From Candidatus Iainarchaeum sp. (GTDB lineage Archaea > Iainarchaeota > Iainarchaeia > Iainarchaeales > JAZDEL01): DNA of 32,000 nt. Shown here in pieces: positions 2,511 through 23,001 of this stretch. Below the pieces are notes generated by a model that ran no database searches, was not told the DNA's origin, and was given only the letters and a program-made list of their open reading frames with translations. How positions within the stretch are numbered: position 1 is the first letter of the stretch; the number at the start of each line of letters is the position of its first letter. The translations under genes were made by a program, and so were the position numbers. Where the stretch lies: contig JAZDEL010000005.1 in NCBI GenBank assembly GCA_043808785.1, positions 1 to 32,000 of the forward strand, in the 5' to 3' direction.

Positions 2511-2539
2511 TAGTGATTAATATGCATAGTGATTAATAT
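2511..2539. promoter_or_regulatory. duplicated AT-rich box in a divergent promoter spacer
   Basis: TAGTGATTAATAT occurs twice (2511-2523 and 2527-2539) in the 102-bp AT-rich spacer between the divergent genes ending at 2486(-) and starting at 2589(+). Each copy contains the ATTAAT palindrome. ATGCAT palindromes lie at 2522-2527 and 2560-2565. Confidence 0.35.
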
Positions 2540-2588
2540 TCTAATTGATATAAATCCTTATGCATATACCTCGGCGAGAGGAAAAAAA

Positions 2589-3374: not shown

Positions 3375-3388
3375 ATCAGGTGGAAATT

Positions 3389-4519: not shown

Positions 4520-4556
4520 TTGCTTTGCGCGCGCAAAATGTGCGGGGTGCCAGAAA

Positions 4557-8727: not shown

Positions 8728-9869
8728 AAATAGCGTATGTTGTTTCTGGCTATGCCCCGCAATTGGGCGGCGCGGAACTTTACACACAGGGGGTTGCGGA
8801 GAGGCTTGCGAAACGCGGGCATGATGTTAGCGTAATAACTTCCCGCCCTGCGGGATACGCGCATTTTGAGGAGATTAACGGCATAAAGGTTTACAGGCTC
8901 CGCGGAACAAGGCTTCTGTTCGGGAAGATGGCGCTTTACCCCGAACTTAGGGCAACCATCGGAAAAATAATGCCTGATGCCTTGCACTGCATCGGGCACG
9001 GGCATCTGTATTCAATCGGCGCCGCAGGCGCGGCATCCAAACTCGGCATCCCGCTTTTCATGCATACATACGGCCCGCTTTCGGCGCACACGCAGCGCGG
9101 AATTCTTGAAAAGGCGCTCTGCGGAATTTACGACTGCATTGTGACCCCGCGGCTTTTCCGGAATGCGAAGGCAGTGCTTTACAGGACGCCGGGCAGCGGG
9201 GAATGGTGCATTTCAAAGGGCGCGAAGAAGGCACTGCTCGGCACAACCGGAATTGACGAGACATTCTTTGCAAAAACAAAAAATAAAAACCGCGGGCGTA
9301 GTTCAAAGGTTGTCGGGTTTGTGGGCACGATATGCAGGAGAAAGGGGGTGCAGAGCCTTGTAGATGCGGCACCGGAGGTAATAAAGAGGCACATGGGCGC
9401 GGAGTTCGTTATTGTAGGCTCGGGCAATGCGGAGACGGACAAAAATTTCGAGGCGGAATTGAGGGAAAGGGTGCGGGAACATGGCATAAGCGGGGCGTTC
9501 AAATTTATGGAGCCCATAATGCCTGACAGCCCTGAAAACAAAAAGAAAATCGCAAGGCTGTTTGATTCATTCGACGTTTTTGTGCTTCCCTCCGAATTCG
9601 AGGCGCCAGCGCAGGCAATGCTGCAGGCAATGGCGCGCGGCAAGCCTGTTGTGGTTGCCGGCATACCTATGCTGAGGGGGATTGTCGGGGACGAGAATGC
9701 GCTTTTCATAAATCCGGGGGACAGCGGCATGCTTGCCGAAAAGATAAGCGCGCTTCTTGCGGACAGCGCGCTGAGGAAACGCATGGGTGAAGCGAACATA
9801 AAGGCTGCAGGAAAGTTCTCGCTGGAACGCATAGCAGCTGAACTTGAGAAGGTTTACGGGGGATTTTGA
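8724..9869 (+). CDS. GT4-family glycosyltransferase
   Basis: Trimmed to ATG 8724 (MKIAYVVSGYAPQLGGAELY), which forms an ATGA overlap with the upstream stop. It has the motif PSEFEAPAQAMLQAMARGKPVVVAG...ENALF. Confidence 0.9.
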   Translation: MKIAYVVSGYAPQLGGAELYTQGVAERLAKRGHDVSVITSRPAGYAHFEEINGIKVYRLRGTRLLFGKMALYPELRATIGKIMPDALHCIGHGHLYSIGAAGAASKLGIPLFMHTYGPLSAHTQRGILEKALCGIYDCIVTPRLFRNAKAVLYRTPGSGEWCISKGAKKALLGTTGIDETFFAKTKNKNRGRSSKVVGFVGTICRRKGVQSLVDAAPEVIKRHMGAEFVIVGSGNAETDKNFEAELRERVREHGISGAFKFMEPIMPDSPENKKKIARLFDSFDVFVLPSEFEAPAQAMLQAMARGKPVVVAGIPMLRGIVGDENALFINPGDSGMLAEKISALLADSALRKRMGEANIKAAGKFSLERIAAELEKVYGGF

Positions 9870-10471
9870 TGGAAGGCATAAACCCTTTCAGGTACCTGCA
9901 GAACGCGCTTTCCAAAATTACGCGCAAAAGGCGCATTGATTTTTTTTTGTCAAGCATGGAACGCCAAGGGAACGCCACTGTCCTTGATGTCGGGGCAAGC
10001 GCCAACTTCCGGCTTAAATGCGGCGGACAGGGCAGGCTAATCGCCCTTAACACAAGCAGGCATGCGCTTTCAGGGCTGTGCGAAACGCCGGCGCTCTGTG
10101 TTGTCGGGGACGGATGCGCCCTGCCGTTCAAAGACAAATCTGTCGACATGGCATTCTCGAATGCGGTTATTGAGCATGCAGGCAGCTGGGAAAGGCAAAG
10201 GCTTTTTGCGGATGAGATAAGAAGGGTGGGAAAAGGGTATATTGTGTGCACTCCGAACAGGCACTTCCCCTACGAGCCGCATTTCCATCTTCCGCTTTTT
10301 CAGTTCATGCCCGCTGCCGTGCAGCGCTTCCTTAAGGGGCTTATGGGAAAGGGGCACCTTGAAGTGCGCCTGCTAAGCAGGGGGGAAATGAAGGGGCTTT
10401 TTCCCGATGCCGAGGTTTTCGGCATGACGTTCGACGCGCTACCTGAAGTGCTCATCGCGCACAGGAAATGA
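9869..10471 (+). CDS. class I methyltransferase-like protein (Methyltransf_11-like, degenerate glycine loop)
   Basis: ATG 9869 shares one nt with the upstream TGA (TGATG). It has VLDVGAS in place of the canonical GxGxG, and GDGCALPFKDKSVDMAFSNAVIEH. Confidence 0.7.
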   Translation: MEGINPFRYLQNALSKITRKRRIDFFLSSMERQGNATVLDVGASANFRLKCGGQGRLIALNTSRHALSGLCETPALCVVGDGCALPFKDKSVDMAFSNAVIEHAGSWERQRLFADEIRRVGKGYIVCTPNRHFPYEPHFHLPLFQFMPAAVQRFLKGLMGKGHLEVRLLSRGEMKGLFPDAEVFGMTFDALPEVLIAHRK

Positions 10472-10472
10472 A

Positions 10473-10675
10473 CCGCGGGCTTTGCGGCTTCGGTACCCGC
10501 GAATAGGCGCGGAGTTTGCTGTTTTGGTGCGGGGGAATCCGCGCGGTTTTTGCGGTTGCGACCCCTGTGAACCCGCGCGGATTTTGCGGTTTCAACCCGC
10601 AAATCCGCGCAGGAACCAAGCAAATATGCGCGGGGGTTTTTTGTTTTCAGTCCCGCGAATCCGCGCAGGTTTCGC
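10473..10675. repeat. array of about six degenerate full or half copies of a GC-rich palindrome (idealised CCGCAAAATCCGCGCGGATTTTGCGG)
   Basis: Copies read by eye are as follows. 10473-10487 is CCGCGGGCTTTGCGG. 10496-10519 is CCCGCGAATAGGCGCGGAGTTTGC. 10531-10555 is GGGGGAATCCGCGCGGTTTTTGCGG. 10572-10589 is CCCGCGCGGATTTTGCGG. 10596-10613 is CCCGCAAATCCGCGCAGG. 10652-10675 is CCCGCGAATCCGCGCAGGTTTCGC. The array fills the convergent spacer between 9869-10471(+) and 10647-11645(-). Confidence 0.65.
10575..10647. terminator. hairpin plus T-tract in the convergent spacer (candidate terminator)
   Basis: GCGCGGATTTTGCGG (10575-10589) pairs with CCGCAAATCCGCGC (10597-10610), giving 14 bp with one bulge and a 7-nt loop. 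Downstream lies GCGCGGGGGTTTTTTGTTTTC (10628-10648). Confidence 0.4.
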
Positions 10676-11645
10676 ATATCGAGAGTTTCCGCATGCGCAT
10701 CATCTCTCTTGCGCGACCGTATTCCTTGCTGCCCCATATGTCCCTGAAAGGAACCTCGAGCGCGTTCCCGAACCTGTACTTCGAATGGAAATCGTAGCAG
10801 CAGGGCGTGACCGTGCCGTCGACAAGCACAACGCCCTTCCTTATGAACGAGCAGCCCTTGTCCGAGGTGTTGGCGGCATAATCTTTCGGCAGGAATTTTT
10901 CCTTCATGTCGGCAATTTCCCGAGGAGTGTAGCCCCATGAAGGTATTGCAAAGGATTTTATCGTGGCGGTCGCATCCAAGGATGCGGCAAACTTTTTGAA
11001 CTCATGCACCTCGTGCCTGTTAAGCTTTGTTTCAATCATCTGCAGCACAAGCTTCGGCTTTGCGCTGCGTGCAGCGCGCTTCTCCTCGGCAAATGCCGCG
11101 AGGTTTTGCATAACCTCCTCGAAATTCCCGCCCCTGCGCATTTTTTCGTAATTTTCCTTTGTGATGCTGTCAAGCGAAACTATGAGCCTGTCAAGTTTCG
11201 CATTTATGAGCCTGCGGGATGTTTCACGGGTAAGCAGGGTTGCGTTCGTGTTTACAATCGAGTTAAGGTTTTTTGAGGATGCGTATCCGACCATCTCGGG
11301 CAGTTCGGGATTGAGCAGCGGCTCCCCCGCGAAAAACAGCCACAGGTAATGCACGGAACAAGGCAGGCCGTCCACGACCTTCCTGAACTCGGCAAGTTTC
11401 ATAAGGCTTCTTTTGCGCTTAAGGCTTGCGTGCGGCGTAGTGCAGAACTCGCAGCGCAGGTTGCACGAGTTCACAGGCTCTATACTCATGGCATGCGGCA
11501 TGCCGGCAAGCCACGAGGGCGCTGCAAAAGCCATATGCGCGGTTTTGCCGAACTCGGCGCAGAGGAAATCACGCCAAGATTCCGCAGCCAGCCTTTTTGC
11601 AAAGCCAAATGCCCTGAGTGCATTCGCTTTTATGCCGCCGCTCAT
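10647..11645 (-). CDS. radical SAM enzyme with twitch/SPASM-like C-terminal domain
   Basis: It has the CxxxCxxC motif (SCNLRCEFC) after MPHAMSIEPVN. The C-terminal part has DGTVTPCCYD (GX4C) and ends CETCADSRD-stop. Its ATG forms an ATGA overlap with the stop of the upstream GT4 gene. Confidence 0.9.
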   Translation of the reverse strand: MSGGIKANALRAFGFAKRLAAESWRDFLCAEFGKTAHMAFAAPSWLAGMPHAMSIEPVNSCNLRCEFCTTPHASLKRKRSLMKLAEFRKVVDGLPCSVHYLWLFFAGEPLLNPELPEMVGYASSKNLNSIVNTNATLLTRETSRRLINAKLDRLIVSLDSITKENYEKMRRGGNFEEVMQNLAAFAEEKRAARSAKPKLVLQMIETKLNRHEVHEFKKFAASLDATATIKSFAIPSWGYTPREIADMKEKFLPKDYAANTSDKGCSFIRKGVVLVDGTVTPCCYDFHSKYRFGNALEVPFRDIWGSKEYGRAREMMRMRKLSICETCADSRD

Positions 11646-12748
11646 TCCACAGCCTCCCTGTAAATCGCGCCGAGCTTTTTGTTTACCGCGACTGTGCCGA
11701 ACATTTCGTCAAAGCGCTTCCTGCCTGCCATGCCCATTTTTTTGCGCAGGCTACGCGACTCGATGAGCTGCAGCAGCGCGCCCTCCAATGCATCCGCGCT
11801 GCCCGGCCCAACAAGCACGCCAGTCTTCCCGTCCTCGACAATTTCGGGTATTGCGTTTATGCCTGTTGCAACAACTGGCAGGGAAAATGCCATTGCCTCC
11901 TGAAGGACGATGCCGTGTGCGTCTATAGGCGAGGGGAAGCAGAATATGTCAGCCTCGCGGTAGAAGCGCGGAATTTCCGCATACTGCATGAAGCCGTATT
12001 TCTTCACGCCCTCGATGCCGTTTGGCACCTCATCGCCGCTGCCCACAACAACAAGCTCCAGTTCCGGAAACCTTTTTTTCAGCCTCCCGAAAGCCTCGAG
12101 CAGCACATTCCCGCCCTTGCGCGCAAACTGCGTCGAGACAAAGAGGATGCGAAGGGCTTCGGCTTCGGCGGCGGCAGAATCCCGCCTGCGGGAAACCGTT
12201 TCTGGAATGTCGAGCCCCGGGGGAATTACCTCTATTTTCCCGTGGCCGATGCCCGGCACGCGCTCCTCCAGCGTGCGCACTGCATAATTTGAAAACGGAA
12301 TCAGTTTTTTGCAGTTTTTTGAATTAATAACCTTCCGCAAAATGAAGCCTGCCCTCTGCCTGAGTTCCGGGCGGTTGCGGAAGTAATAGAATGTGTTTGC
12401 CGTGTCAAACGCAAAAACCCAGGGCTTGTTTGCGTGCAGCGGCGTAACCATTGAATGCACCAGCGAGATGCCGCTTTCATGCGGAAGGGAGAGGCGCCTC
12501 ACAATGGGCAGGTTTGTCTTCAGCGCTGCCGAAACTGTTTTTGCAAGCGGAATTTTGTAGAGTGCGCCCGTGTATGAAAAGACACTTGCAGGAACAAGGC
12601 GCCCGCTGTGGTCCGCGTTTATGAACTCGCGGTGCCCCGCCGTGTAGCTGCCGTAGAAATAGTTCACTCCGTCCGGCGGGCTGCCGAGAAGGTTCCTGAG
12701 ATAGGTTGCCCCGCCCTGGCCCGGATAGCCGTAGAAAAAGACATTCAT
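11642..12748 (-). CDS. GT4-family glycosyltransferase
   Basis: 368-aa ORF with ILFVSTQFARKGG and PSPIDAHGIVLQEAMAFSLPVVATGINAIPEIVEDGKTGVLV. ATGA overlaps at both ends. Confidence 0.9.
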   Translation of the reverse strand: MNVFFYGYPGQGGATYLRNLLGSPPDGVNYFYGSYTAGHREFINADHSGRLVPASVFSYTGALYKIPLAKTVSAALKTNLPIVRRLSLPHESGISLVHSMVTPLHANKPWVFAFDTANTFYYFRNRPELRQRAGFILRKVINSKNCKKLIPFSNYAVRTLEERVPGIGHGKIEVIPPGLDIPETVSRRRDSAAAEAEALRILFVSTQFARKGGNVLLEAFGRLKKRFPELELVVVGSGDEVPNGIEGVKKYGFMQYAEIPRFYREADIFCFPSPIDAHGIVLQEAMAFSLPVVATGINAIPEIVEDGKTGVLVGPGSADALEGALLQLIESRSLRKKMGMAGRKRFDEMFGTVAVNKKLGAIYREAVE

Positions 12749-13605
12749 TCCTGCCGCGCCCCCTTTGGAATTTCAAGCGTGCAGCCCGGCTTTATGCAGT
12801 AAACCCGCCCGCCATATTCGAATGAGAGCGGCACATTGAACCTCTGCGCATCAAGCCGCGAAACCGCACGCACAGTAAGGGTGCGCGCGGATTCGGAAAC
12901 AGCCTCTATTTTAGAATTCTCCCTCTCGAGTATGTATTTTGCCACGTTCGCCATGGTATCTATCCATACGTCTCCGGAACGCAGGGACGCGAGGTGCCTG
13001 TCAAGCTGGCTCGGCATCGTGCAGTAGCTGTAACCTTTTTTTATGCCAATCAAGTGATGTATCTCGATAAGCCACCCCCCTGCGGACTTCTCAAGCCAGC
13101 CGTCCATTTCGCGCGCAGTGCTGCAGGTGCTTGAAAATGCGCCGAGGCACAAAAGGTCGTGGGGAGTGCTGCTGTTCGGCTTGTCTCCACGCACCCTCCC
13201 GGCAAGGTAGTGCCGCCTTGCCGCATTTCGGATGCGGTAGTTGTGCCTTGCATAAGGGTATGCGATTGTTTCCGCCCCGAGCATGTGCCCCGACTCCGAA
13301 AGTTCGCGCAAAACCTCGCCCTGGCCCAAATCAACAAGGCGCCTGTGGGTCATGCCGTGGCTTGAGATTTCGTGCCCCGCATTCCTAAGCGATTCCATCT
13401 CAGCAAGCGAGATGCACTGCGTGCCCTCGAACCGCTTTCCCAGCAGCCCTGCAATGACTGCAAAATTCGCCTTTATTCCGTGTTTTTCGAGTATCGGAAG
13501 CGCGGCATTCACGCTATCGCGCCAGCAGTCGTCGAAAAATATGGTTGTTGCAGTTGCCTTCCCGCCTGACCACGTGCAAATACTGAAGTCGCCCCCATTC
13601 GGCAT
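12745..13605 (-). CDS. polysaccharide deacetylase (CE4 / NodB homology domain)
   Basis: It has NodB motif 1 FFDDCW (TFDDG-like) and motif 2 SSHGMTH. The ORF extends to a GTG at 13647. ATG 13605 is preferred because 13606-13667 looks like a promoter spacer. No signal peptide. Confidence 0.85.
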   Translation of the reverse strand: MPNGGDFSICTWSGGKATATTIFFDDCWRDSVNAALPILEKHGIKANFAVIAGLLGKRFEGTQCISLAEMESLRNAGHEISSHGMTHRRLVDLGQGEVLRELSESGHMLGAETIAYPYARHNYRIRNAARRHYLAGRVRGDKPNSSTPHDLLCLGAFSSTCSTAREMDGWLEKSAGGWLIEIHHLIGIKKGYSYCTMPSQLDRHLASLRSGDVWIDTMANVAKYILERENSKIEAVSESARTLTVRAVSRLDAQRFNVPLSFEYGGRVYCIKPGCTLEIPKGARQE

Positions 13606-13667
13606 AGTCAGGTTAGGGGCAAAACAACTAATAAATATTGCTGTCACAGATATATCTGCGTGTTGCG
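13606..13667. promoter_or_regulatory. 62-bp divergent promoter spacer with a shared AT-rich box
   Basis: AATAAATATT (13630-13639) lies 25-34 nt from the minus-strand ATG (13605) and 29-38 nt from the plus-strand ATG (13668). A second box, GATATATC, lies at 13648-13655. This spacing fits archaeal TATA boxes driving leaderless or short-leader mRNAs. Confidence 0.4.
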
Positions 13668-14630
13668 ATGGAAGATGCGATATTGGTTACTGGCGGCGCG
13701 GGCTTCATAGGAAGCACCGCAATAGCGGCGCTTTTGGGCGAGGGGGCGCGCATAGTTTGCGTGGACAATTTCAGCGACGACTACGACCCCGCGCTTAAGA
13801 GGAAAAATATAAAGCCCTTCCTCGGCAACGAAAATTTCACGCTTATCGAGGCGGATATCCGCGACAAAAAAATCATGGAAAAGGCTTTCAGGAAGGGCAA
13901 ATTCGCCAAGGTTCTGCACCTTGCGGCAAGGGCTGGCGTAAGGCAGAGCATTGCGCAGCCCGAACTATACGAGGACATCAATGTCCGCGGAACCCTGAAC
14001 ATGCTTGATGCAGCAAAGGCGCACGGAGTGAAGGATTTTGTATTTGCATCATCCTCGAGCATTTACGGCGCGACGAAAAACATCCCGTTCAAAGAAGGGG
14101 ATGGCGGCATTGCGGTTTCCCCTTATGCCGTAACCAAGAGGGCGGGCGAACTTTACTGCAGTTACTACAGCAGGGCATACGATATGAACTGCGCCTGCCT
14201 GCGCTATTTCACAGTTTACGGGCCGGGGCAGAGGCCCGCGCTTGCGATACACAAGTTCACAAGGCTTATAAGCGAGGGCATGGAAGTGCCGATTTACGGC
14301 GACGGCAGCAGCGCGCGCGATTATACTTATGTAAGCGACATAGTGCGCGGCACCCTTGCCGCGCTTGAATTTTCTGGAAAAAACCGCGGCTTCCAGATAA
14401 TAAACCTCGGCAACTCGCGCCCCGTGAACATTATGGAGCTTGTGGGGCTTATAGAGAAGGAGTTAGGAAAAAAGGCGAATGTAAGGCACGTGCAGGAGCA
14501 GGCAGGGGATGTGAAGGTTACGCATGCGGACATATCAAAGGCAGGGCGCCTGCTCGGCTACGAGCCGAAAATGAAAATCGAGGAAGGGATAGGCAAATTT
14601 GTCGAGTGGTACAATTCCGGGGGAAAGTGA
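13668..14630 (+). CDS. NAD-dependent epimerase/dehydratase (extended SDR), UDP-glucuronate 4-epimerase-like
   Basis: It has the Rossmann motif VTGGAGFIGS, DNFSDDYDPALKRKN, SSSSIYG, the catalytic YAVTK (YxxxK) and RYFTVYGPGQRP. All are typical of the CapI / UDP-GlcA 4-epimerase group. Confidence 0.85.
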   Translation: MEDAILVTGGAGFIGSTAIAALLGEGARIVCVDNFSDDYDPALKRKNIKPFLGNENFTLIEADIRDKKIMEKAFRKGKFAKVLHLAARAGVRQSIAQPELYEDINVRGTLNMLDAAKAHGVKDFVFASSSSIYGATKNIPFKEGDGGIAVSPYAVTKRAGELYCSYYSRAYDMNCACLRYFTVYGPGQRPALAIHKFTRLISEGMEVPIYGDGSSARDYTYVSDIVRGTLAALEFSGKNRGFQIINLGNSRPVNIMELVGLIEKELGKKANVRHVQEQAGDVKVTHADISKAGRLLGYEPKMKIEEGIGKFVEWYNSGGK

Positions 14631-15406
14631 TGGGCGGCAAAAGCATGGCTACGGGAAAAGGCAGGGTTGATTGGCTCGGAAAGCACTTCGAATTCAATGC
14701 CAAAAAGTACGCATACTCCTACAGCAATTGGGAGCCGCGCAGGGCCAGGATGCTTGAAATAATGCCGCAGGAAGGCATATCGCGGGCGCTTGAAGCAGGC
14801 TGCGGGAGCAACCCCCTTATAGAGGCGCTTCCTGCAGGCGTTGAAAAATTCGGCTTGGATATTGCCCGCCAGCGGCCGAAGGGCGTGAAGTTCAGGCGGC
14901 ACAATGTCGAGGACGGCATCCCTTTCGCGGACGGCTATTTCGATTTGGTTGTTGCGGGGGAAATTATAGAGCATGTTTACGAGACGGGAAGATTCCTGCG
15001 GGAATGCAACCGCGTTCTGCGCAAGGGCGGCACGCTCCTTGTCTCAACCCCTAACACGGGCTCGCTGCGCAACATAAAGGATGCAATTCTCGGAAGGCAG
15101 CCGAGGTATATGGATTACGATGCCGTGCTGCGCCCACGCGACAGCGGGCACATAAGGCACTACTCGCGCAGCGCGCTTTTCTCGCAACTGTGGGAATGCG
15201 GCTTTTCTGCCGAGCGCCTGACAAGCGACTTTGTATATTTCCCCCTGCATTTCCACATAAAACCAATAGGCTGGCTTGGAGAGAAGCTTGCGGCGCTGGT
15301 TCCGCGCTACGGGGATTCGCTTATCGTGAGGGCGAGAAAGATTTCGGATCATAACTATTGCGCTCCAGGAAAGTTTTGCGGCTTTTTGGCCCAAGGGGTT
15401 TTTTGA
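14630..15406 (+). CDS. class I SAM-dependent methyltransferase (paralogue A1)
   Basis: ATG 14630 shares one nt with the upstream TGA. It has LEAGCGSNP and FDLVVAGEIIEHVYETGRFLRECNRVLRKGGTLLVSTPN. It is a clear paralogue of 19100-19819. It carries a 21-aa Cys-containing tail (ISDHNYCAPGKFCGFLAQGVF) that the paralogue lacks. Confidence 0.85.
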   Translation: MGGKSMATGKGRVDWLGKHFEFNAKKYAYSYSNWEPRRARMLEIMPQEGISRALEAGCGSNPLIEALPAGVEKFGLDIARQRPKGVKFRRHNVEDGIPFADGYFDLVVAGEIIEHVYETGRFLRECNRVLRKGGTLLVSTPNTGSLRNIKDAILGRQPRYMDYDAVLRPRDSGHIRHYSRSALFSQLWECGFSAERLTSDFVYFPLHFHIKPIGWLGEKLAALVPRYGDSLIVRARKISDHNYCAPGKFCGFLAQGVF

Positions 15407-16287
15407 TGGCCGATAAATTAAAAAACATAAAAGAAAAAATCAGGAAAGAACTGGCGAAAAATCCTGCTTATCTGGACGGCTGTGATGTGCCGGCATTAAA
15501 AGCGGTATTGTTCGAAACCGGCTCCGCCTGCAACAGGAAATGCGCCTGGTGCCCCAATTACACTACTGACAGAGGGAACCATTTTTTGGGCGATAAAGTT
15601 TTTTATAAAGTAATGGCCGAGCTTAAGGAAATGAAATTTGAAGGGAGGGTTTCATTCAGCATGTACAATGAACCCCTGCTTGACAAAAGGCTCCCGAAAT
15701 TTATTGAACACGTGAGAAAAAACATCCCTTCGGCATATATATACCTGAACACCAACGGGGACGCACTGACCTCGGATGTCTGGAAAAGCCTTCGGGGGAA
15801 GGGGCTGGACTATGCCAACGTCTCCCAATATGACGGAAAAATAAATGAAAACATTGAAAAAATCCTGAATGGATTGGATTCGGGTGAAAGAAAGCATCTC
15901 GGCGCACATATTTTTGATTTGAACACCATTAACAACAGGGCGGGATTGATTAAATCAAGGGCGCTTGAGAAGCCTTTGCAGGAGAAGTGTTCCCGGCCTT
16001 CTTACCAATTGTGCATTAATTACAAAGGCGAAGTTGTTGTTTGCTGCAATGATTACCACGGTTCGGTTACGGTAGGCGACGCGGGCAAAGAATCAATAAA
16101 AGATTTGTGGAGTAATTATGTGTTTAAGTTCTACAGGAAGAAGTTATCGGAAGGGGACAGGGCGAGTTTGGAATTATGCAATTTGTGCGATTTGTGCTCA
16201 AGCCCTGTGCCTCCAATTTATCCTAAGCCCTCATTTGCCGCGCGGGCGCGGCGGGCGCTGCGGCAAATTATAAACAATTATAAATAA
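15406..16287 (+). CDS. radical SAM enzyme with Cys-rich twitch/SPASM-like C-terminus
   Basis: ATG 15406 shares one nt with the upstream TGA. It has CxxxCxxC (SACNRKCAWC), then KGEVVVCCND (GX4C) and CNLCDLC. GC is markedly low (22/60 in each of the samples 15421-15480 and 15601-15660). Confidence 0.9.
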   Translation: MADKLKNIKEKIRKELAKNPAYLDGCDVPALKAVLFETGSACNRKCAWCPNYTTDRGNHFLGDKVFYKVMAELKEMKFEGRVSFSMYNEPLLDKRLPKFIEHVRKNIPSAYIYLNTNGDALTSDVWKSLRGKGLDYANVSQYDGKINENIEKILNGLDSGERKHLGAHIFDLNTINNRAGLIKSRALEKPLQEKCSRPSYQLCINYKGEVVVCCNDYHGSVTVGDAGKESIKDLWSNYVFKFYRKKLSEGDRASLELCNLCDLCSSPVPPIYPKPSFAARARRALRQIINNYK

Positions 16288-16370
16288 TTGCAGCCAATTT
16301 TATTATTGCATTTAAAGCGCGGTTAAAGAAAGTTTTTGAGGAAGCTGTCGGATGATTGCGGGGTAATCGG

Positions 16371-18155
16371 ATGATTATACTTGGGTTCACGAACGGCCAC
16401 GACTGCGGAGCCTCGATTGTGAGGGACGGGAGGGTTGTTGCGGCCGTAAACGAGGAAAGGCTTAACCGCGTGAAGGTGTATTGGGGCTTCCCGTGGCTCT
16501 CAATCAGGGAGGTTATGCGCGTTGCGGGGGTTAAACCTGGGGAGATTGACGCTGCCGCATATGGCGGCCTTGCCGACGCCTGCAACATCTGGCAAGTCAA
16601 GAACCAGTCGGAGGGCCTGCAGTACCCCTCGCTGTTCGGGATGAACTGCGGAGCCGTGAATTTAATCGAAAAAAGGGCATACAGGCCGCTGCTGAGGAGG
16701 GGCATAATCAAACGTGGGAGCGCCGATGTCGCGCTCAAATATTTCCGGAAGGCGTTGCGCAGGATTGGGATTGCCGCTCCGCTTGCAATGGTCGAGCACC
16801 ATGCCGCGCATGCTGCCTCGGCATATTACAGCTCGGGGCGCGAGAATGCCACGACAATTACAATTGACGGAATCGGCGACTTGCAGTGCGCAACTGTATC
16901 AAAATGCAAAGGCACGGAAATCGAGAGGATTGCATCAACGCATTACCATGGGGCATCACCTGGTGCCTTCTATGCGAATGTTACAAATCTCCTCGGCTTC
17001 AGGCCCCTGAGGCATGAGGGCAAAGTGACAGGGCTTGCCGCCTACGGGAATCCGGAGGCAATTGAGTTCCCGTTTTTGGGCCTCGCAAACGGAGGAATGG
17101 AATTCAAGTGGGAGAATTACGAGGGCTATTTCCCGAGGCCGTTTGACAGCCTGTCGAATTTCCTTCTGTACATCAGGGGCGGCCTCGGCATTGGCGCAAC
17201 AAGCAGGGCATATCTTGATGCAATGAGGGAAAGGGCCAAAGGGGCCAAGAGGGAGGATGTTGCGGCCGCCGCACAAAAGAAATTCGAGGAGGTTATTTGC
17301 AGGCATGTGGAGAAGGTTCTCGAGGCAACCGGAAACGGGAACCTCTGCCTTGCGGGAGGGGTGTTTGCGAATGTGAAGCTCAATCAGCGCATCCATGAAA
17401 TCGACGGCGTTAGCAGCATTATGGTGCACCAGCATATGGGTGACGGCGGGCTGGCTGTCGGGGCGGCGCTGCACTATTACAGGGAGAAGCAAGGGGGAAA
17501 ATGCGTAAAGCTGCCGCATGCTTACCTGGGCCCCGAGTATGGCGGGGGAGAGATAGAGCGCGAGCTTACGGCAGCGGGGCTTGAGTATGAGGAGCACGGG
17601 GATATTGACGGAAAGGTTGGGGAGGTGCTGGCCGAGGGCGACATAGTCGCGAGGTATGGCGGCAGGATGGAGTACGGGCCCCGTGCGCTCGGAAACAGGA
17701 GCATTTTGTGCCAGCCCACCGACCCCTCCGTAAACGATTGGCTGAATAAAAAGCTGAAACGCACGGAGTTCATGCCTTTTGCGCCAGTAACGCTTGGCCG
17801 TTATGCGAAGAAGTGCTACAAAGGCATGAAGGGGGCGGAGCAGCCTGCCGAGAACATGATTATTACCTTTGGCTGCACCGACTGGCTTGCTGAGAACTGC
17901 CCTGCTGTCGTGCATGTTGACGGAACGGCACGCCCCCAGGTCATCGAGAGGGGCGTGAACCCCGGGTATTACAGGGTGCTGGAGCAATACCACAAGATTA
18001 CGGGCCTGACTACGCTCATTAATACCTCATTCAACATCCACGAAGAGCCCATAGTATGCACGCCGGGGGATGCCGTGAGGGCGTTTAAGCTCGGGCATCT
18101 GGAGTACCTGGCTATCGGGGATTTTTTGGTTCGGAACAAAAGCGATAAAAACTGA
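16371..18155 (+). CDS. NodU/CmcH-family carbamoyltransferase
   Basis: The N-terminus is MIILGFTNGHDCGASIVRDGRVVAAVNEERLNRVK. The C-terminal domain has VHVDGTARPQ and NTSFNIHEEPIVCTPGDA. Both are hallmarks of the family. Confidence 0.9.
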   Translation: MIILGFTNGHDCGASIVRDGRVVAAVNEERLNRVKVYWGFPWLSIREVMRVAGVKPGEIDAAAYGGLADACNIWQVKNQSEGLQYPSLFGMNCGAVNLIEKRAYRPLLRRGIIKRGSADVALKYFRKALRRIGIAAPLAMVEHHAAHAASAYYSSGRENATTITIDGIGDLQCATVSKCKGTEIERIASTHYHGASPGAFYANVTNLLGFRPLRHEGKVTGLAAYGNPEAIEFPFLGLANGGMEFKWENYEGYFPRPFDSLSNFLLYIRGGLGIGATSRAYLDAMRERAKGAKREDVAAAAQKKFEEVICRHVEKVLEATGNGNLCLAGGVFANVKLNQRIHEIDGVSSIMVHQHMGDGGLAVGAALHYYREKQGGKCVKLPHAYLGPEYGGGEIERELTAAGLEYEEHGDIDGKVGEVLAEGDIVARYGGRMEYGPRALGNRSILCQPTDPSVNDWLNKKLKRTEFMPFAPVTLGRYAKKCYKGMKGAEQPAENMIITFGCTDWLAENCPAVVHVDGTARPQVIERGVNPGYYRVLEQYHKITGLTTLINTSFNIHEEPIVCTPGDAVRAFKLGHLEYLAIGDFLVRNKSDKN

Positions 18156-18186
18156 TGCATGGCTTTTTTGCACAGGGGGCACAGGA

Positions 18187-18963
18187 ATGGCCGGTGAAAG
18201 CAATGAAATGCTGACTGTGGATTACAACGGAATTACTGTCTACTACAAAAAGCATCTTGACGGAGGTGGCAGTACGTTCGGGCAGGATTACATTCCCGAG
18301 GTCGGGAAGCGCTTCGGGAAGGTGGGGAGGGTGCATGAATTCTGCTGCGGGCCTGCATTCATTGGATTTTCATTGCTTGCGCACGGGCTGTGCGATTCAT
18401 TGTGCCTTTCGGACATAAACCCGAAGGCGATAGAGATGTGCAGGCTCACTGTAAAAGAAAACCGCCTGGAAGGGGTTGTTGATTGCTACGTTTCCGACTG
18501 CTTAAAGGGAATCCCGGAAACAGAGAAGTGGGATTTGGTTGTAAGCAACCCTCCGCACTTCGACGGCACTGAAGAGGATTATGCGCGTGAAATCCGCAGC
18601 TATGACCCGAAATGGAGGATACACAAGGAATTCTATGAAAATATCGGCGGCTTCCTAAACGAGGGAGCATCAGTTTATTTCTATGAAAACGGCCGGCAGT
18701 CAAACCCGGAAATATTCAAGGAAATGGCTGGGAAAGCGGGGCTTGAATTTGCCGGAATCCGCAGGCCGGGCAAGCTGGAGGTGATCCCCAGATGTCTTGC
18801 ATGGAGGCTGCCCCGAGTGCTGCACAAATTCCCGAACATCAGAAAAATGGCCGGCATTGTCATTAGAAGTGCGAACTACCCTTTCTATTTTATCCACAGC
18901 AGGAAACCTGCTGCCGGGAGCGCAAGCAACCCTTCCCATTTTGCCCGCGGCAGGAAGTATTGA
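18187..18963 (+). CDS. class I methyltransferase of the (D/N)PP(Y/F/H) amino-methyltransferase type (MTS-like)
   Basis: 258-aa ORF with motif I region VHEFCCGPAFIGF, LSDINP, and motif IV DLVVSNPPHF. Confidence 0.75.
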   Translation: MAGESNEMLTVDYNGITVYYKKHLDGGGSTFGQDYIPEVGKRFGKVGRVHEFCCGPAFIGFSLLAHGLCDSLCLSDINPKAIEMCRLTVKENRLEGVVDCYVSDCLKGIPETEKWDLVVSNPPHFDGTEEDYAREIRSYDPKWRIHKEFYENIGGFLNEGASVYFYENGRQSNPEIFKEMAGKAGLEFAGIRRPGKLEVIPRCLAWRLPRVLHKFPNIRKMAGIVIRSANYPFYFIHSRKPAAGSASNPSHFARGRKY

Positions 18964-19004
18964 TGCTTAGCATGTGCCGCACCGGGCATGAATGCGCGCA
19001 TATC

Positions 19005-19049
19005 CCGCGCTACGGTGATTCGCTTATCGTGAGGGCAAGGAAGGTTTAG
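19005..19049 (+). pseudogene. orphan 3'-terminal fragment of the A-type methyltransferase gene (PRYGDSLIVRARKV-stop)
   Basis: It is 43/45 identical, by eye alignment, to 19775-19819, the real 3' end of the gene that starts 51 nt downstream. The match includes the TAG. It is also related to 15302-15346. There is no upstream coding continuity. Confidence 0.6.
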
Positions 19050-19099
19050 CCCCGCGGCAACCCTTAAAAACAGGTCTGGGCAAATTCTATCGGTCGGAC

Positions 19100-19819
19100 A
19101 TGGGCAAAAAAAACTGCGAAAGCCAAAAGCCGTACTGGCTGGATGCGCACTTTGCATTCAACAGAGAGGGGCATACAAGAATCCCCCCTTACTCAAAATC
19201 CGGCATGCACGACGTGCTTCTCTACAGTAGGCTTATAGACCTGCTGCCACAAGACGGTATTTCAAAGGCGTTCGAGATAGGCTACGGGAATAACCCTATT
19301 ATAAGCTTCCTGCCAAGTGGCGTAGAAAAGTTTGGAATAGATATGGCTGACATAAAGCCAGATGGCATTAATGTCATAAGGCACAATGTAGAGGACGGCC
19401 TGCCGTTCCAGAAAGGCTGCTTCGAGCTTGTGGTTGCCTGCGAAACCATAGAACACATATATGAAACAGGCAACTTCCTGCGGGAATGCAACCGCGTGCT
19501 GCGAAAGGGCGGCACGCTGGTTTTGTCTACGCCCAACATTGCTTCGCTGCGCAATATAGCAAGATGCATACGTGGCAGGCAGCTGAAATTCATGGGATAT
19601 GATGTGAGAAGCGCAGATGGGCACATAAGGTGCTACACCCGCGGCTCGCTCTTCAGGCAGCTCGATGAATGCGGGTTTTCAGTAGAAAAGTTCACAAGCA
19701 CCAAAATGTACCTGCCTTTGCACTTCCATATAAAGCCCATAGGCTGGCTTGGCACTAAACTCGCGCCCCTTCTTCCGCGCTACGGGGATTCGCTTATCGT
19801 GAGGGCGAGGAAGGTTTAG
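19100..19819 (+). CDS. class I SAM-dependent methyltransferase (paralogue A2)
   Basis: 239-aa ORF. It has FELVVACETIEHIYETGNFLRECNRVLRKGGTLVLSTPN and LHFHIKPIGWLG...PRYGDSLIVRARKV, near-identical in blocks to 14630-15406. Confidence 0.85.
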   Translation: MGKKNCESQKPYWLDAHFAFNREGHTRIPPYSKSGMHDVLLYSRLIDLLPQDGISKAFEIGYGNNPIISFLPSGVEKFGIDMADIKPDGINVIRHNVEDGLPFQKGCFELVVACETIEHIYETGNFLRECNRVLRKGGTLVLSTPNIASLRNIARCIRGRQLKFMGYDVRSADGHIRCYTRGSLFRQLDECGFSVEKFTSTKMYLPLHFHIKPIGWLGTKLAPLLPRYGDSLIVRARKV

Positions 19820-19834
19820 TGCCGCTTTGGCGCC

Positions 19835-20860
19835 TTACTTCAGGGCACCGCAGCAATAAACCGTTCTGCACGGCCCGCCTATTTTTCCGAACTCCCGCCT
19901 TTCAAGCATGCCTATCAGCCGTTTCCTCTTCTCTGATGAATATATCCGATCAATTGACCGCTCCCAAATATTGCCGAGAGCAAGCTCGTTGTTCGAATCG
20001 AGACAGCAGGCATACCATGTTCCATCCGGAGCTATGAATGCAACCGAATGCATCTTCTCGAGGCGCGGACACGAGTAACCGCACAGGTCCGCGCTAAGGT
20101 GTGCCGCCGCATCCCTCTCAGCCCACCCGAAGACAGCACTCCTAAGAACCATATCGCGCGGGGCAAGCAGCCTGTTCAGGGGAAGCGCAAAAACCCGTGC
20201 CTTTTCTGCAGTTTGCCTGCTTATGCCCAAACGCTTCGCAAGGAGAAGGCAGTGCATCTTCATTTTTATTTCTGCAAAATCGTCGGGCACCTCAGCAAGG
20301 CGTGCGTCGCGCATCTTTGCAGGGTAAAACCCGAAAGCGCCGTGAATTGAATGTATGTAATCGTGCAAAGTCACCACATGTATGCGCAGCGGCACCGCAC
20401 TTTTCAGTTCGCGCCTCAGCCCGAGAAAAGCCTCGAGGTTGCGCATCGTGTTTTCAAGCGGAATGCGCTTTACATTGAAGTAGTTTTCCGCATTTGCGCC
20501 GTCAATGTTGCAGTGCACCTTGTCTATAAGCCCTTCCTCAAGGATTGTGCGCGACTTTTCTTCGGTCAGGTTCTGGAAATTCGTGAAAACGCCTGTTTCA
20601 ATCCACGGGCATTCCGCCTTTATGTGCCTCGCTATTTCGATGAAGCGCGGGTTCAGAAAGGCGTCGCCGTTCTCGCCGAGCTGCATATGCGTCACGCTGT
20701 GCCGAGCGCGGAATTCCGGGGAGGAAAGCTCGGAGGTTATTTTTTTCGCAAGGCCGAGGGGCATAATCTTTTCCTTTATCTTCGCGCCCCGGTCCCTTGC
20801 GCAAAAAATGCAGTCTGCTCCGCATGCTAAGGAAAGCGAAAGGTTTACCGCAGTGAGCAT
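19835..20860 (-). CDS. radical SAM enzyme with twitch/SPASM-like C-terminus
   Basis: It has CxxxCxxC (LACGADCIFC) close to the N-terminus. The C-terminal part has DGTWYACCLD (GX4C) and GGPCRTVYCCG. The track ORF starts at a TTG (20869). ATG at 20860 is preferred. It is convergent with 19100-19819 with only a 15-nt gap. Confidence 0.85.
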   Translation of the reverse strand: MLTAVNLSLSLACGADCIFCARDRGAKIKEKIMPLGLAKKITSELSSPEFRARHSVTHMQLGENGDAFLNPRFIEIARHIKAECPWIETGVFTNFQNLTEEKSRTILEEGLIDKVHCNIDGANAENYFNVKRIPLENTMRNLEAFLGLRRELKSAVPLRIHVVTLHDYIHSIHGAFGFYPAKMRDARLAEVPDDFAEIKMKMHCLLLAKRLGISRQTAEKARVFALPLNRLLAPRDMVLRSAVFGWAERDAAAHLSADLCGYSCPRLEKMHSVAFIAPDGTWYACCLDSNNELALGNIWERSIDRIYSSEKRKRLIGMLERREFGKIGGPCRTVYCCGALK

Positions 20861-20992
20861 GTTTACCAATTCAAATTTGGGGCGGATGTGTTAAAAAACA
20901 AGCGCTAGGGTTAGTGCGAAAGTTTGTGCACGCCGCACCCCCTGCAATTTGCGCGAAAATAACGCCCGCGTGCGCGCCTGTTCCCGCGCGTT

Positions 20993-21014
20993 CATGCCTG
21001 TCCATGCCCGTCCA
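20993..21014. promoter_or_regulatory. tandem 10-bp repeat upstream of a TATA-like box
   Basis: CATGCCTGTC and CATGCCCGTC, followed by CA, sit immediately upstream of TCTATATAAA (21021-21030). The spacer lies between the radical SAM gene (-) and the secreted-protein gene (+). Confidence 0.3.
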
Positions 21015-21100
21015 GATGCATCTATATAAACCGTTCATCCGCAATAGGTATAATTCCATTCAAATCAAATAAACAAAAGGAAAAACGAGGTGATTTTTGG

Positions 21101-22228
21101 ATGAAGATGAAATATGGAGCGGGCATTGCCCTGCTGCTTGCCGCAGCGGTGCTGCTTGGCACTTACGCGTTTGCGGAGGAGGCACTGCCTAACCATGAGG
21201 ATGCCAATGCAACCGCGCATGAGCAGGACGGCGGCGCTTCGATAGGTGCGGATACTGTAGCCGATAATACGGGGGAAATTGCCGAGGATACCGCAGCGGA
21301 TAATGGTACGGGCGATGCAGCAGCGAAAGCAATGAGGGAAAGGGCCCGCATTGCGGCAGAGGAAGCAAAGCAGGCAAGGGAAAAGGCAGGCAAAGGCAAA
21401 GAGGCTAAGGGAACCGATGCTGAAACCGTTTCAGCGGAACCCGCGGATTATGAAACAGTGCTTGCGCAGATAGGCGAGGGGCTTAACACAGAGGACGCGA
21501 AAAACCTCGGGGAAATAATGAGCGAACTTGCACACAGGCAGGCGCAGGAAAGGCAGGACGCGAACCTTACTGGAAGGGAAAGGGCCGAGTTCAACAAACA
21601 GCTCAACGCATACCTGAAAAACCTCAGGGCGGATATCAGGGTTGCTGTGAAGGACAAGAACCTTTCCGCGGTTGTTGCAAGGGAAATTGCAAGGAGGGCG
21701 GAGGTAGCAAGGGTAAAATCTGCGGCGGAACTGAGGCCAGAGGTTCTTCTCGAGGAGATTTCGGCAGTCTTCGGCACCGCGGACGAGGCTCAGCTCAAGG
21801 AGATAAAGGACATTGTAAGGCAGCGCATAAGGAACAACATCCATTTCTGGAACAGGCTGCTCTACAGGCTGAAGAATGACGCGAAATTCAGGCAGCACTT
21901 CAGGGACATGGTGCATAAGTGGTACCAAAAGCAGTACCTGAATCAGCACCCCGAAATTGTTCGGCCCGAAGCCGCGACGGAAAACGTTGCCGCAAGGGCA
22001 ATAAACCACGATTTCGTGAGGCAGCACCTGCTTGAAAAAATAAGGCAGCGCCTCAGGGACAGGGCGCACAATGCGAAGCAGGCAAGCATTATTCCAGAAC
22101 TGGTGCAGGACATGGTGGACGAGAACGCCATAATCAATCCTGCGCTTGTGCAGGTGGATTCGGCAGCGGTTGCCGCCGAAGTGAACCCTGAAGCGGAAAT
22201 AAACCCCGCGGTTGCACAGCCGCGGTAA
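21101..22228 (+). CDS. secreted or N-terminally anchored hypothetical protein, acidic low-complexity then highly charged helical
   Basis: GAGGTGA lies 7 nt upstream of the ATG. It has a signal-like N-terminus (MKMKYGAGIALLLAAAVLLGTYAFA). An A/D/E/T-rich segment carries NAT and NGT sequons. A long K/R/E-rich region follows, and the C-terminus has NPxx repeats. Confidence 0.7.
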   Translation: MKMKYGAGIALLLAAAVLLGTYAFAEEALPNHEDANATAHEQDGGASIGADTVADNTGEIAEDTAADNGTGDAAAKAMRERARIAAEEAKQAREKAGKGKEAKGTDAETVSAEPADYETVLAQIGEGLNTEDAKNLGEIMSELAHRQAQERQDANLTGRERAEFNKQLNAYLKNLRADIRVAVKDKNLSAVVAREIARRAEVARVKSAAELRPEVLLEEISAVFGTADEAQLKEIKDIVRQRIRNNIHFWNRLLYRLKNDAKFRQHFRDMVHKWYQKQYLNQHPEIVRPEAATENVAARAINHDFVRQHLLEKIRQRLRDRAHNAKQASIIPELVQDMVDENAIINPALVQVDSAAVAAEVNPEAEINPAVAQPR

Positions 22229-22362: not shown

Positions 22363-23001
22363 ATGAACCGCAAATTCGGGGCATTGCTTTTTGCTTTTTC
22401 CGCACTGCTTATCCTCGGCTATGCTTCCGCGCTTTTGGGGAATTACTCGGTTGTTGTTGAGGAGAACGGCAACGCAGCGGTTGTGCTTTCTGTCGAGGGC
22501 TCGGGAACCGTTGATGTGCCTTTGCCGCTCGATACCGAGAATTATGCAATCGATGGGGCGCTTTACGTGCCCTCCGCAAACGGAGTCGAACTTTCCATAG
22601 ATGAGGGAACGCCGGCAACGCTTATATACGACAGCGCACTGCTTACCTCCAAAAGTGCTGAAGGCTGGGCATTTGAACTTGATTTGGGAGCCTTTGATTC
22701 CGGAAGCGTAACCCTCTTCCTGCCAAAGGACACGAGGGTAGCGTCAATGCAGCCAATGGGCTCTGTTTCCGACAGCGATGACGCGAAGATTATAGCGTAC
22801 ACGATAATGAAGGGCACTGCAAGCGTCGGGGCGAACTACTCTTTTGTTTCCGCGGGCGGCGGCACCGAAGGGGGGGAAAGCGGCAAGGAAGGGCGGAGTG
22901 CGGACGGCGCGCTTATAATGGGCGCCGCAATAGCGATAGTTGTTGTGCTTGTTGTTGCGGTCATTGTGTTCATCTACCTGTCCTCTAAAAAAAAAGTTTA
23001 A
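22363..23001 (+). CDS. cell-surface protein with N-terminal signal/anchor and C-terminal transmembrane anchor
   Basis: The N-terminus is hydrophobic (FGALLFAFSALLILGYASA). The central domain is beta-rich and carries NYS sequons. A G/E/S-rich linker precedes a C-terminal TM helix plus basic tail (ALIMGAAIAIVVVLVVAVIVFIYLSSKKKV). Confidence 0.7.
   Translation: MNRKFGALLFAFSALLILGYASALLGNYSVVVEENGNAAVVLSVEGSGTVDVPLPLDTENYAIDGALYVPSANGVELSIDEGTPATLIYDSALLTSKSAEGWAFELDLGAFDSGSVTLFLPKDTRVASMQPMGSVSDSDDAKIIAYTIMKGTASVGANYSFVSAGGGTEGGESGKEGRSADGALIMGAAIAIVVVLVVAVIVFIYLSSKKKV

Follow-up and report, generated by a model that had tools for sequence, protein, structure and literature searches.

Three twitch radical SAM enzymes with an invariant cysteine doublet in the glycan island of a DPANN archaeon: probable sugar-tailoring enzymes related to BtrN

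The characterized radical S-adenosylmethionine (SAM) enzymes acting on sugars with which we compare here, BtrN, DesII, BlsE, NeoN and HygY, all belong to antibiotic pathways. The founding example of the twitch radical SAM enzymes is BtrN (PDB 4M7T), the 2-deoxy-scyllo-inosamine dehydrogenase of butirosin biosynthesis, with a CxxxCxxC core and one C-terminal cluster domain. The canonical SPASM enzymes (anSME, PqqE, SuiB, CteB) carry a seven-cysteine motif which includes CX2CX5CX3C. Such enzymes hold two auxiliary clusters and modify peptides or proteins; BtrN abstracts a hydrogen atom at the carbinol carbon of a carbohydrate-like cyclitol, and oxidation follows (PMC9012708). Here we analyze three radical SAM genes, termed rSAM1, rSAM2 and rSAM3, on a stretch of 32,000 nucleotides from Candidatus Iainarchaeum sp. 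(contig JAZDEL010000005.1, positions 1 to 32,000; the whole stretch is called the window below). The three proteins share with BtrN the layout of a core and one cluster domain. BtrN, however, stems from an antibiotic cluster, whereas the genes of the window are situated in a glycan island rich in glycosyltransferases of family 4 (GT4) and methyltransferases. We suggest that they probably encode twitch enzymes which tailor sugars or glycans.

Coordinates and motifs of the three genes are listed in Table 1. As the first-pass annotation of the window had claimed, all three open reading frames (ORFs) are present, and each of them codes for a CxxxCxxC motif toward the N-terminus and a G-x4-C-C-x-D element toward the C-terminus. 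The proteins match the Pfam families Radical_SAM (PF04055; E = 6e-20, 9e-10 and 1.4e-08 for rSAM1, rSAM2 and rSAM3, with bit scores of 72.5, 39.4 and 35.5 against a cut-off of 29.5) and SPASM (PF13186; E = 8e-13, 5e-10 and 5e-08). All six matches exceed the gathering scores and are far beyond chance, and family membership is a direct observation. Among the profiles which the first-pass annotation had named as a check, TIGR04085 stays below its cut-off: rSAM3 reaches 16.4 bits where 27 are needed, and rSAM1 and rSAM2 have no listed match. The locus had been placed correctly with the exception of its end at 20869, which is an upstream TTG. We prefer the ATG at 20860 as the start of rSAM3 because it matches the conserved N-terminus of the homologs ('ML.SINLSL'). 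For rSAM2 we prefer the ATG at 15406 over the alternative TTG at 15358, since the ATG overlaps the stop codon of the upstream methyltransferase gene (TGATG). The three families are 21-30% identical to each other, and their profiles align end to end with the cysteine doublet of the G-x4-C-C-x-D element (CC doublet) in register (hhalign 99.9%, E = 5e-32, and 98.8%, E = 1e-16).

We scored every cysteine of the window proteins in alignments of their homologs, 120 for rSAM1, 53 for rSAM2 and 120 for rSAM3. The cysteine pattern and its conservation can be read directly from these alignments. The radical SAM cysteines (C61/C65/C68 in rSAM1, 100% in its 120 homologs; C42/C46/C49 in rSAM2; C13/C17/C20 in rSAM3) are invariant, that is, present in 100% of the non-gap sequences (families of 53, 120 and 120 homologs). 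Toward the C-terminus exactly five cysteines per family, and none further, are invariant or nearly so. These are C265, C282, C283, C324 and C327 in rSAM1 (100%), C195, C213, C214, C258 and C261 in rSAM2 (51-53 of the 53 homologs) and C264, C285, C286, C331 and C337 in rSAM3, where C336 is conserved at 89%. The BtrN fragment of PDB 4M7T was added to each family alignment, and the positions of the BtrN ligands were read from the 4m7t alignment. C189/C207/C252/C255 of 4m7t_A align with C195/C213/C258/C261 of rSAM2 and with C265/C282/C324/C327 of rSAM1. The counterparts in rSAM3 are C264/C285/C331 and, placed less exactly because the spacing is Cx4CC and not CxxC, C336 or C337. The fifth invariant cysteine, the second of the CC doublet, aligns in all three families with a phenylalanine of BtrN; thus Cys-Phe in BtrN stands against an invariant Cys-Cys.

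The Pfam SPASM match, the fold and the G-x4-C element, which the models put in a short beta-hairpin, are common to the canonical SPASM enzymes and the window proteins. In contrast, the canonical CX2CX5CX3C motif is absent from all three proteins, which have the five conserved cysteines instead, and five are too few for two auxiliary [4Fe-4S] clusters. Judged by the alignments, rSAM1, rSAM2 and rSAM3 are BtrN-type twitch enzymes with a cluster content of one predicted auxiliary [4Fe-4S] cluster each. The first-pass annotation had regarded them as non-canonical SPASM enzymes with unusual final cysteine clusters and had expected a further cysteine behind the terminal CxxC of rSAM1. A new cluster arrangement, with two clusters or an unusual set of ligands, could indeed be read from the terminal motifs, which differ among the proteins (CxxC, CxxCxxC and Cx4CC), and from the six well-conserved C-terminal cysteines of rSAM3. 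The motifs do exist, but their odd-looking extra cysteines are not conserved: C264 of rSAM2, the third cysteine of CNLCDLC, is a cysteine in one of 27 sequences and C260 of rSAM3 in one of 120 homologs. Moreover, four of the five invariant cysteines align one-to-one with BtrN ligands, and relatives without the second cysteine of the doublet retain the other four. With the CX2CX5CX3C motif missing and rSAM1 ending five residues past its CxxC, as is normal for a twitch domain, we see an ordinary four-cysteine twitch layout with one extra invariant cysteine and not an aberrant SPASM domain. A new cluster arrangement is in our opinion highly improbable.

The comparison with solved proteins points in the same direction. 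rSAM2 matches BtrN over its full length (E = 2e-31; 32% identity over 229 residues with E = 7e-36). For the rSAM3 family profile the best solved relative is again BtrN (E = 1.3e-10), matched via core and C-terminal domain. The C-terminal domain of rSAM1 matches BtrN as well (E = 9e-09), and the best solved sequence match of its radical SAM core is DesII (E = 2.6e-09). The identity of rSAM1 and rSAM3 to BtrN amounts to only 23-25%. AlphaFold2 models of rSAM1 (predicted local distance difference test score, pLDDT, 86) and rSAM3 (pLDDT 94) show short paired beta-strands flanking the CC doublet, followed by helices, and both match radical SAM structures, whose fold is a partial TIM barrel, with probability 1.00 in a fold search against the PDB. 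The best fold matches of rSAM1 include DesII, BtrN and BlsE, and the top ones of rSAM3 are DesII and BtrN. Thus the nearest solved relatives of rSAM1 and rSAM3, namely BtrN, DesII and the cytosylglucuronate decarboxylase BlsE, all act on sugars.

None of these relatives appears to be the same enzyme. We take rSAM2 for a homolog of BtrN and, judging by the sequences, not for an ortholog, because the identity is 32%, the doublet is CC and not CF and genes of a 2-deoxystreptamine pathway are missing in the window. A Pfam scan found neither aminotransferase nor 2-deoxy-scyllo-inosose synthase domains in any ORF of the window. DesII (PDB 8HZV) acts on a nucleotide sugar, as also expressed in the name of NCBIfam TIGR04426, namely on dTDP-4-amino-4,6-dideoxy-D-glucose, and is a deaminase with a side dehydrogenase activity. 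It has about 470-490 residues with additional N-terminal sequence, whereas the window proteins have 293-341; the score for TIGR04426 is 50 bits at a cut-off of 450; and an aminotransferase-domain gene which could supply an amino-sugar substrate is missing from the window. HygY, NeoN and EpeE have the two-cluster twitch layout which is predicted for the window proteins and work in antibiotic or RiPP (peptide synthesized by the ribosome and modified post-translationally) pathways. EpeE is a weak fold match to our models (ranks 27-50).

The one real departure from BtrN is the second cysteine of the doublet (C283 in rSAM1, C214 in rSAM2, C286 in rSAM3). As a background we used 80 loci from a metagenome scan with the close subfamily of rSAM1, nearly all of which are distant matches to the N-terminal radical SAM core. 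Among the SPASM/twitch ORFs of this background, 35 unrelated ones have a single cysteine, and the only five with CC are all full-length relatives of rSAM1. In the rSAM2 family CC is found in 115 of the 134 scorable sequences among the top 148 cluster representatives. As far as sequence comparison can tell, the CC doublet is peculiar to these families and not a general SPASM trait. In more distant, viral relatives of rSAM2 the residue after the second ligand is C (15), S (20), D (3), A (3) or G (1), and the other cluster cysteines are retained. Because of this variation and of the phenylalanine in BtrN, a ligand role of the second cysteine at the cluster is very unlikely. The cysteine appears rather to behave as a residue which defines the function of a subfamily.

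A cysteine which adjoins a ligand of the auxiliary cluster may well suit the role of a hydrogen donor. EpeE, a twitch epimerase, has a cysteine outside the set of cluster ligands which quenches the substrate radical from the opposite face; the thiyl radical formed in this way is proposed to be reduced again by the auxiliary cluster (PMC13012085). According to a title cited in PMC10991966, HygY epimerizes a sugar as a twitch enzyme and is turned into a dehydrogenase by the mutation of one cysteine, and the same paper remarks on Cys249 of NeoN as a non-ligand cysteine which delivers hydrogen. By analogy, the extra invariant cysteine of the window proteins could act like the hydrogen-donor cysteine of EpeE, C183 of HygY or C249 of NeoN.

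The gene context fits enzymes of sugar metabolism. Up to position 20860 the glycan island holds six GT4 genes (one fused to a methyltransferase), eight further methyltransferases, a polysaccharide deacetylase of carbohydrate esterase family 4 (CE4), a nucleoside diphosphate (NDP)-sugar epimerase/dehydratase of the short-chain dehydrogenase/reductase (SDR) type, an O-carbamoyltransferase and the three radical SAM genes. The GT4, CE4 and methyltransferase neighbors had already been assigned by the first-pass annotation; the epimerase/dehydratase and the NodU/TobZ-type carbamoyltransferase are to be added. The operon coupling is directly visible. CE4, GT4 and rSAM1 are joined by ATGA overlaps and thus form one operon on the minus strand. 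rSAM2 belongs to a tight plus-strand operon of SDR, methyltransferase, rSAM2, carbamoyltransferase and two more methyltransferases. The likeness of the SDR and the carbamoyltransferase to PDB entries marks the operon partners of rSAM2 as sugar-tailoring enzymes. The closest entries for the SDR are the dTDP-glucose 4,6-dehydratase 5u4q (7e-66), 6zl6 (named 'epimerase domain-containing protein', which we take to be UDP-glucuronate 4-epimerase) and WbgU/WbpP, and those for the carbamoyltransferase are NovN (1e-68), GdmN and TobZ (5e-59).

The intergenic gaps are tiny and leave no room for the gene of a precursor peptide. This bears on the possibility that the three enzymes are RiPP maturases modifying a ribosomal peptide encoded nearby. 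Such a function could be suspected from the Pfam SPASM domain, from fold matches which include CteB, SuiB, SkfB and EpeE, and from the locus of one relative (L123) with a PqqD-rSAM-SPASM gene about 6 kb away. However, the Pfam scan found no PqqD/RRE domain in rSAM1, rSAM2 or rSAM3. The two small ORFs next to rSAM3 and rSAM1 (62 and 55 residues, Table 1), tested against all loci, are not conserved as proteins and were rejected as precursor peptides, in agreement with the first-pass annotation, which had seen no convincing candidate. The cysteines allow one auxiliary cluster only, whereas most peptide maturases have two, and the relatives described below have glycan-gene neighbors in many phyla or are even fused to glycosyltransferases. 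We regard the maturation of a ribosomal peptide as largely refuted, with next to no chance of being correct.

Conserved DNA is present near rSAM3 but belongs to the upstream region of the neighboring gene. Upstream of the gene 21101-22228, a stretch some 155 bp long is 81% identical to L001:1016-1164 in the relative L001 described below, more than the one coding stretch compared likewise (SDR region, 71%). It matches in both reading directions, so that the conservation is one of DNA or RNA rather than of protein. Its companion in the two loci is the orthologous gene of the secreted protein and not rSAM3. An Rfam scan of the window, including this stretch, found no RNA family.

Table 1. Features of the glycan island and its surroundings in the window
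Feature	Coordinates	Strand	Remarks
Glycan island	~155 to ~22228		
ORF without Pfam match	846-2486	-	546 residues; signal peptide and four C-terminal membrane helices
Upstream block: methyltransferase, GT4, GT4, GT4, GT4-methyltransferase fusion, GT4, methyltransferase	2529-10471	+	Pfam scan; syntenic in L001
GT4 fused to class I methyltransferase	6901-8727	+	608 residues
Small ORF	10452-10619	-	55 residues; downstream of rSAM1
rSAM1	10647-11645	-	332 residues; CNLRCEFC at residues 61-68; DGTVTPCCYD; C-terminus CETCADSRD-stop
GT4 glycosyltransferase, middle gene of CE4-GT4-rSAM1	11642-12748	-	Glycos_transf_1 2e-32; start/stop overlaps on both sides
CE4 polysaccharide deacetylase, first gene of CE4-GT4-rSAM1	12745-13647	-	Polysacc_deac_1 6.5e-16; conserved in L001
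NDP-sugar 4-epimerase/4,6-dehydratase (SDR), first gene of plus-strand operon	13638-14630	+	Epimerase 5e-61
Class I SAM methyltransferase, coupled to rSAM2	14606-15406	+	Methyltransf_23/11 ~1e-14; TGATG junction
rSAM2	15406-16287	+	293 residues; CNRKCAWC at residues 42-49; KGEVVVCCND; CNLCDLC
O-carbamoyltransferase (NodU/TobZ/NovN type)	16356-18155	+	Carbam_trans_C 3.5e-55; Carbam_trans_N 8e-38
MTS-type methyltransferase	18187-18963	+	PF05175 4e-12; conserved in L001
Class I methyltransferase, convergent with rSAM3	19100-19819	+	Methyltransf_23/11
rSAM3	19835-20860	-	341 residues; CGADCIFC at residues 13-20; DGTWYACCLD; CRTVYCC
Small ORF	20871-21059	-	62 residues; upstream of rSAM3
Conserved stretch	20943-21097		~155 bp
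ORF without Pfam match	21101-22228	+	375 residues; secreted, low complexity or coiled-coil
ORF without Pfam match	22363-23001	+	212 residues; signal peptide, C-terminal membrane anchor, two NYS sequons

To annotate the neighbors of relatives elsewhere we used a pooled Pfam scan together with small custom profiles, single-sequence phmmer probes being too insensitive. The same island, with the gene order CE4-GT4-rSAM1 conserved, is present in the syntenic relative L001, which carries rSAM1 (57% identity) and rSAM3 (73% identity) but lacks rSAM2. Between the SDR and the carbamoyltransferase of L001 we found an ORF of 103 residues (L001:6707-7018) which is 47% identical over 72 residues to the N-terminus of the window methyltransferase (14648-14863). 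This methyltransferase remnant suggests that the methyltransferase-rSAM2 pair was deleted in the lineage of L001 and hence is dispensable. We had also considered that the pair is an inserted cassette, and rejected this origin since L001 retains the remnant. The G+C content of the pair is 0.495, that of the flanks 0.53-0.57.

The recurrence of a glycan context in relatives was observed directly. In the close subfamily of rSAM1 (at least 43% identity, contigs of DPANN type), all four loci with visible neighbors have a GT4, SDR or PF00953 gene next to the radical SAM gene. Members of the rSAM2 family are accompanied by glycosyltransferase or nucleotide-sugar genes in six of seven distinct contexts, often together with further radical SAM/SPASM genes. 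Members of the rSAM3 family occur in very diverse phyla of bacteria and archaea, in each case in uncultured genomes. Among 21 of its loci with flanks, a glycosyltransferase lies within 4 kb in 13 and a methyltransferase in 11; 15 have at least one glycosyltransferase, SDR or methyltransferase within this distance. The most frequent Pfam families in the 144 ORFs neighboring the rSAM3 family account for 17 class I methyltransferases, the commonest neighbors, ten GT4 and ten family 2 glycosyltransferases (GT2), six radical SAM proteins, five phosphodiesterases, four NDP-sugar epimerases and three Wzx-type flippases.

The five phosphodiesterases are of the PF01663 type (type I phosphodiesterase/nucleotide pyrophosphatase, found at L013-L037) and belong to the alkaline-phosphatase superfamily. 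They could be taken as a hint that the window enzymes are anSME-like maturases which act on a residue of an enzyme or surface protein whose gene lies in the island or close to it. Genes for secreted or anchored proteins do flank the island, and JGI names some relatives of rSAM3 'sulfatase maturation enzyme AslB'. Yet these labels are generic automatic names, and there is neither a sulfatase nor a phosphodiesterase gene in the window. The window proteins lack the hallmark of anSME, seven or eight cysteines for two auxiliary clusters, and by sequence their best relatives are BtrN and DesII and not anSME. We therefore hold maturation of a protein to be very unlikely.

Several glycan clusters of uncultured archaea and bacteria (L005, L006-L008 and L010) contain three to six radical SAM genes, including B12-binding ones, with nucleotidyltransferase, DegT aminotransferase, sulfotransferase, GT2/GT8 and flippase genes as neighbors. 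At L010 six radical SAM genes lie amid GT2, DegT aminotransferase, acetyltransferase, PMT_2 and flippase genes. Glycan islands with multiple radical SAM genes look like a recurring theme.

A profile search with rSAM2 through 1.84 billion cluster representatives gave 2,475 relatives at E<=1e-30, and here domain fusions are directly observed. In the top match (E = 1e-108) a PMT_2 glycosyltransferase domain of the GT-C type is fused to the rSAM-twitch module. Further fusions have the order rSAM-twitch-GT4, GT2-rSAM-twitch, rSAM-twitch-class I methyltransferase and DUF6625-rSAM-twitch, and fusions recur on several independent contigs. The rSAM-methyltransferase fusion P0361 mirrors the translationally coupled pair of the window. 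To our mind these fusions are the strongest single argument, drawn from sequence as it is, that the rSAM2 family works together with glycosyl and methyl transfer.

The GT-C fusion also allows for another substrate, since glycosyltransferases of this type use polyprenyl-phosphate-linked donors. Instead of a sugar, the enzymes could have the lipid carrier or a membrane lipid (polyprenyl or dolichyl phosphate, archaeal ether lipids) as their substrate. Lipid-modifying radical SAM/SPASM enzymes are known (review PMC13459092), and one rSAM1 relative is located downstream of a PF00953 gene for a polyprenyl-phosphate sugar-phosphate transferase. Against a lipid substrate speak the closest characterized homologs, all of which act on sugars or cyclitols, the fusions with soluble-type GT2, GT4 and methyltransferases, the nucleotide-sugar-type tailoring enzymes in the operon of rSAM2 and the fact that no membrane segment is predicted in any of the three window proteins. 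We consider action on lipids unlikely, with some small chance left to it.

The rSAM2 family also extends to viruses. In the viral contigs of IMG/VR, which are up to 191 kb long, 291 stretches encode full-length relatives of rSAM2 and BtrN with 27-34% identity; the viral loci are designated L126-L205. L126 is a genuine phage with terminase and ribonucleotide reductase, and about 3 kb upstream of its radical SAM gene a DNA beta-glucosyl-HMC-alpha-glucosyltransferase-like gene is found. As one possible role, the viral relatives might take part in sugar modification, either of phage DNA or of the surface of the host.

Taking the evidence together, sugar tailoring in a surface-glycan biosynthetic island of this DPANN archaeon is most likely the role of the three enzymes. 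The proposal of the first-pass annotation, radical chemistry on sugars or glycans and not on peptides, is supported by the homology to BtrN, DesII and BlsE, the translational coupling, the recurrent glycan loci and the fusions to glycosyl- and methyltransferases. The closest homologs do not fall into a characterized subfamily with a non-glycan substrate, the auxiliary-cluster cysteines are conserved and no conserved precursor gene accompanies the relatives; the opposite outcomes had been named as grounds to give up a sugar role.

Several points weigh against sugar tailoring. The fold similarity is generic, with template modeling (TM) scores of 0.5-0.6 to sugar- and peptide-modifying SPASM enzymes alike; thus the fold search confirms the SPASM/twitch class and cannot discriminate the function. 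No curated NCBIfam family is matched above its cut-off by any of the three proteins. The distant Bacteroidota-type relatives of rSAM1 are not in glycan contexts, and the same is true for the Chlorobaculum relative and for six of the 21 rSAM3-family loci. The neighbor tallies given above are raw counts without a formal genomic background for enrichment. Finally, the island has no aminotransferase which would consume a keto-sugar. We nevertheless consider it likely that the three twitch enzymes tailor sugars or glycans.

We suggest that the reaction could proceed in the following steps. The reduced [4Fe-4S] cluster at the N-terminal CxxxCxxC motif would cleave SAM, and the 5'-deoxyadenosyl radical formed would take a hydrogen atom from a sugar carbon of a nucleotide sugar or of a growing or lipid-linked glycan. 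From here two routes are conceivable. The sugar radical could lose an electron to the auxiliary cluster and yield a keto-sugar as in BtrN. Or the extra cysteine adjoining the second ligand would give a hydrogen atom to the opposite face, resulting in the epimer, and the auxiliary cluster would re-reduce the thiyl radical. The products might be handed to the neighboring methyltransferases, the carbamoyltransferase and the glycosyltransferases. Methyltransferases could use a ketone for C-methylation. Both the sugar substrate and the choice between oxidation and epimerization are what we infer, and for the CC-bearing enzymes we lean slightly toward epimerization.

Other genes of the window may be mentioned briefly. 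The NodB-like CE4, the NodU-like carbamoyltransferase and the methyltransferases of the island recall the decoration of Nod factors, that is, the de-N-acetylation, N-methylation and O-carbamoylation of N-acetylglucosamine oligomers (according to NCBIfam names), which is an analogy only. The ORF in which a GT4 is fused to a class I methyltransferase corresponds to two separate adjacent genes in L001 (13531-14658 and 12824-13534). The protein of 212 residues is, by its signal peptide, its membrane anchor and its two NYS sequons, a candidate glycoprotein substrate. Downstream the housekeeping genes DUF63, Trm5/TYW2 and a gene of the tetrapyrrole-methylase family (which may be diphthine synthase) fit an archaeal origin.

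Radical SAM chemistry on sugars as such is already known and well precedented in antibiotic pathways by BtrN, DesII, BlsE, NeoN and HygY. The view of the first-pass annotation that the chemistry is poorly characterized thus holds for the use in surface glycans and not for the sugar chemistry itself. Our literature search, which in a limited library is weak evidence of absence, found no characterized sugar-acting radical SAM example from a cell-surface glycan cluster, and in the same library nothing relevant on polysaccharide clusters or archaeal glycan clusters with radical SAM/SPASM enzymes. The novelty lies in the setting, surface-glycan islands which often hold several enzymes of this kind, in the CC signature kept invariant across three families, in the fusions to glycosyltransferases and in the high numbers on phage contigs. 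Specialists are aware that the majority of SPASM/twitch enzymes are uncharacterized (PMC9012708), and we regard our finding as a testable lead and not as a surprise to the specialist.

One could go further and propose that the three families are part of a large unrecognized class of glycan-tailoring radical enzymes, which may be called 'CC-twitch'. It would comprise at least three families, with thousands of clusters in the rSAM2 family, also in phages. Its members would partner with or be fused to glycosyltransferases, and they would employ the second cysteine as hydrogen donor to invert sugar stereocenters in nucleotide sugars or in the assembled glycan, or would functionalize unactivated C-H bonds there in some other way. 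We put this forward tentatively, as a possibility which is more doubtful than the sugar role of the window enzymes.

With the rSAM2 family, the structure of BtrN and a second-cysteine position which varies in nature (C, S, F, D, A, G), the question of epimerase versus dehydrogenase becomes directly testable. If the enzymes are glycan epimerases or oxidases, they would explain the synthesis of unusual sugars in strict anaerobes, and G-x4-C-C-x-D together with a terminal CxxC would be a marker for the annotation of thousands of entries now named 'radical SAM/SPASM domain protein'. Should the CC-twitch class be real, anaerobes and DPANN archaea would possess a route to rare sugars which is independent of O2 and NAD.

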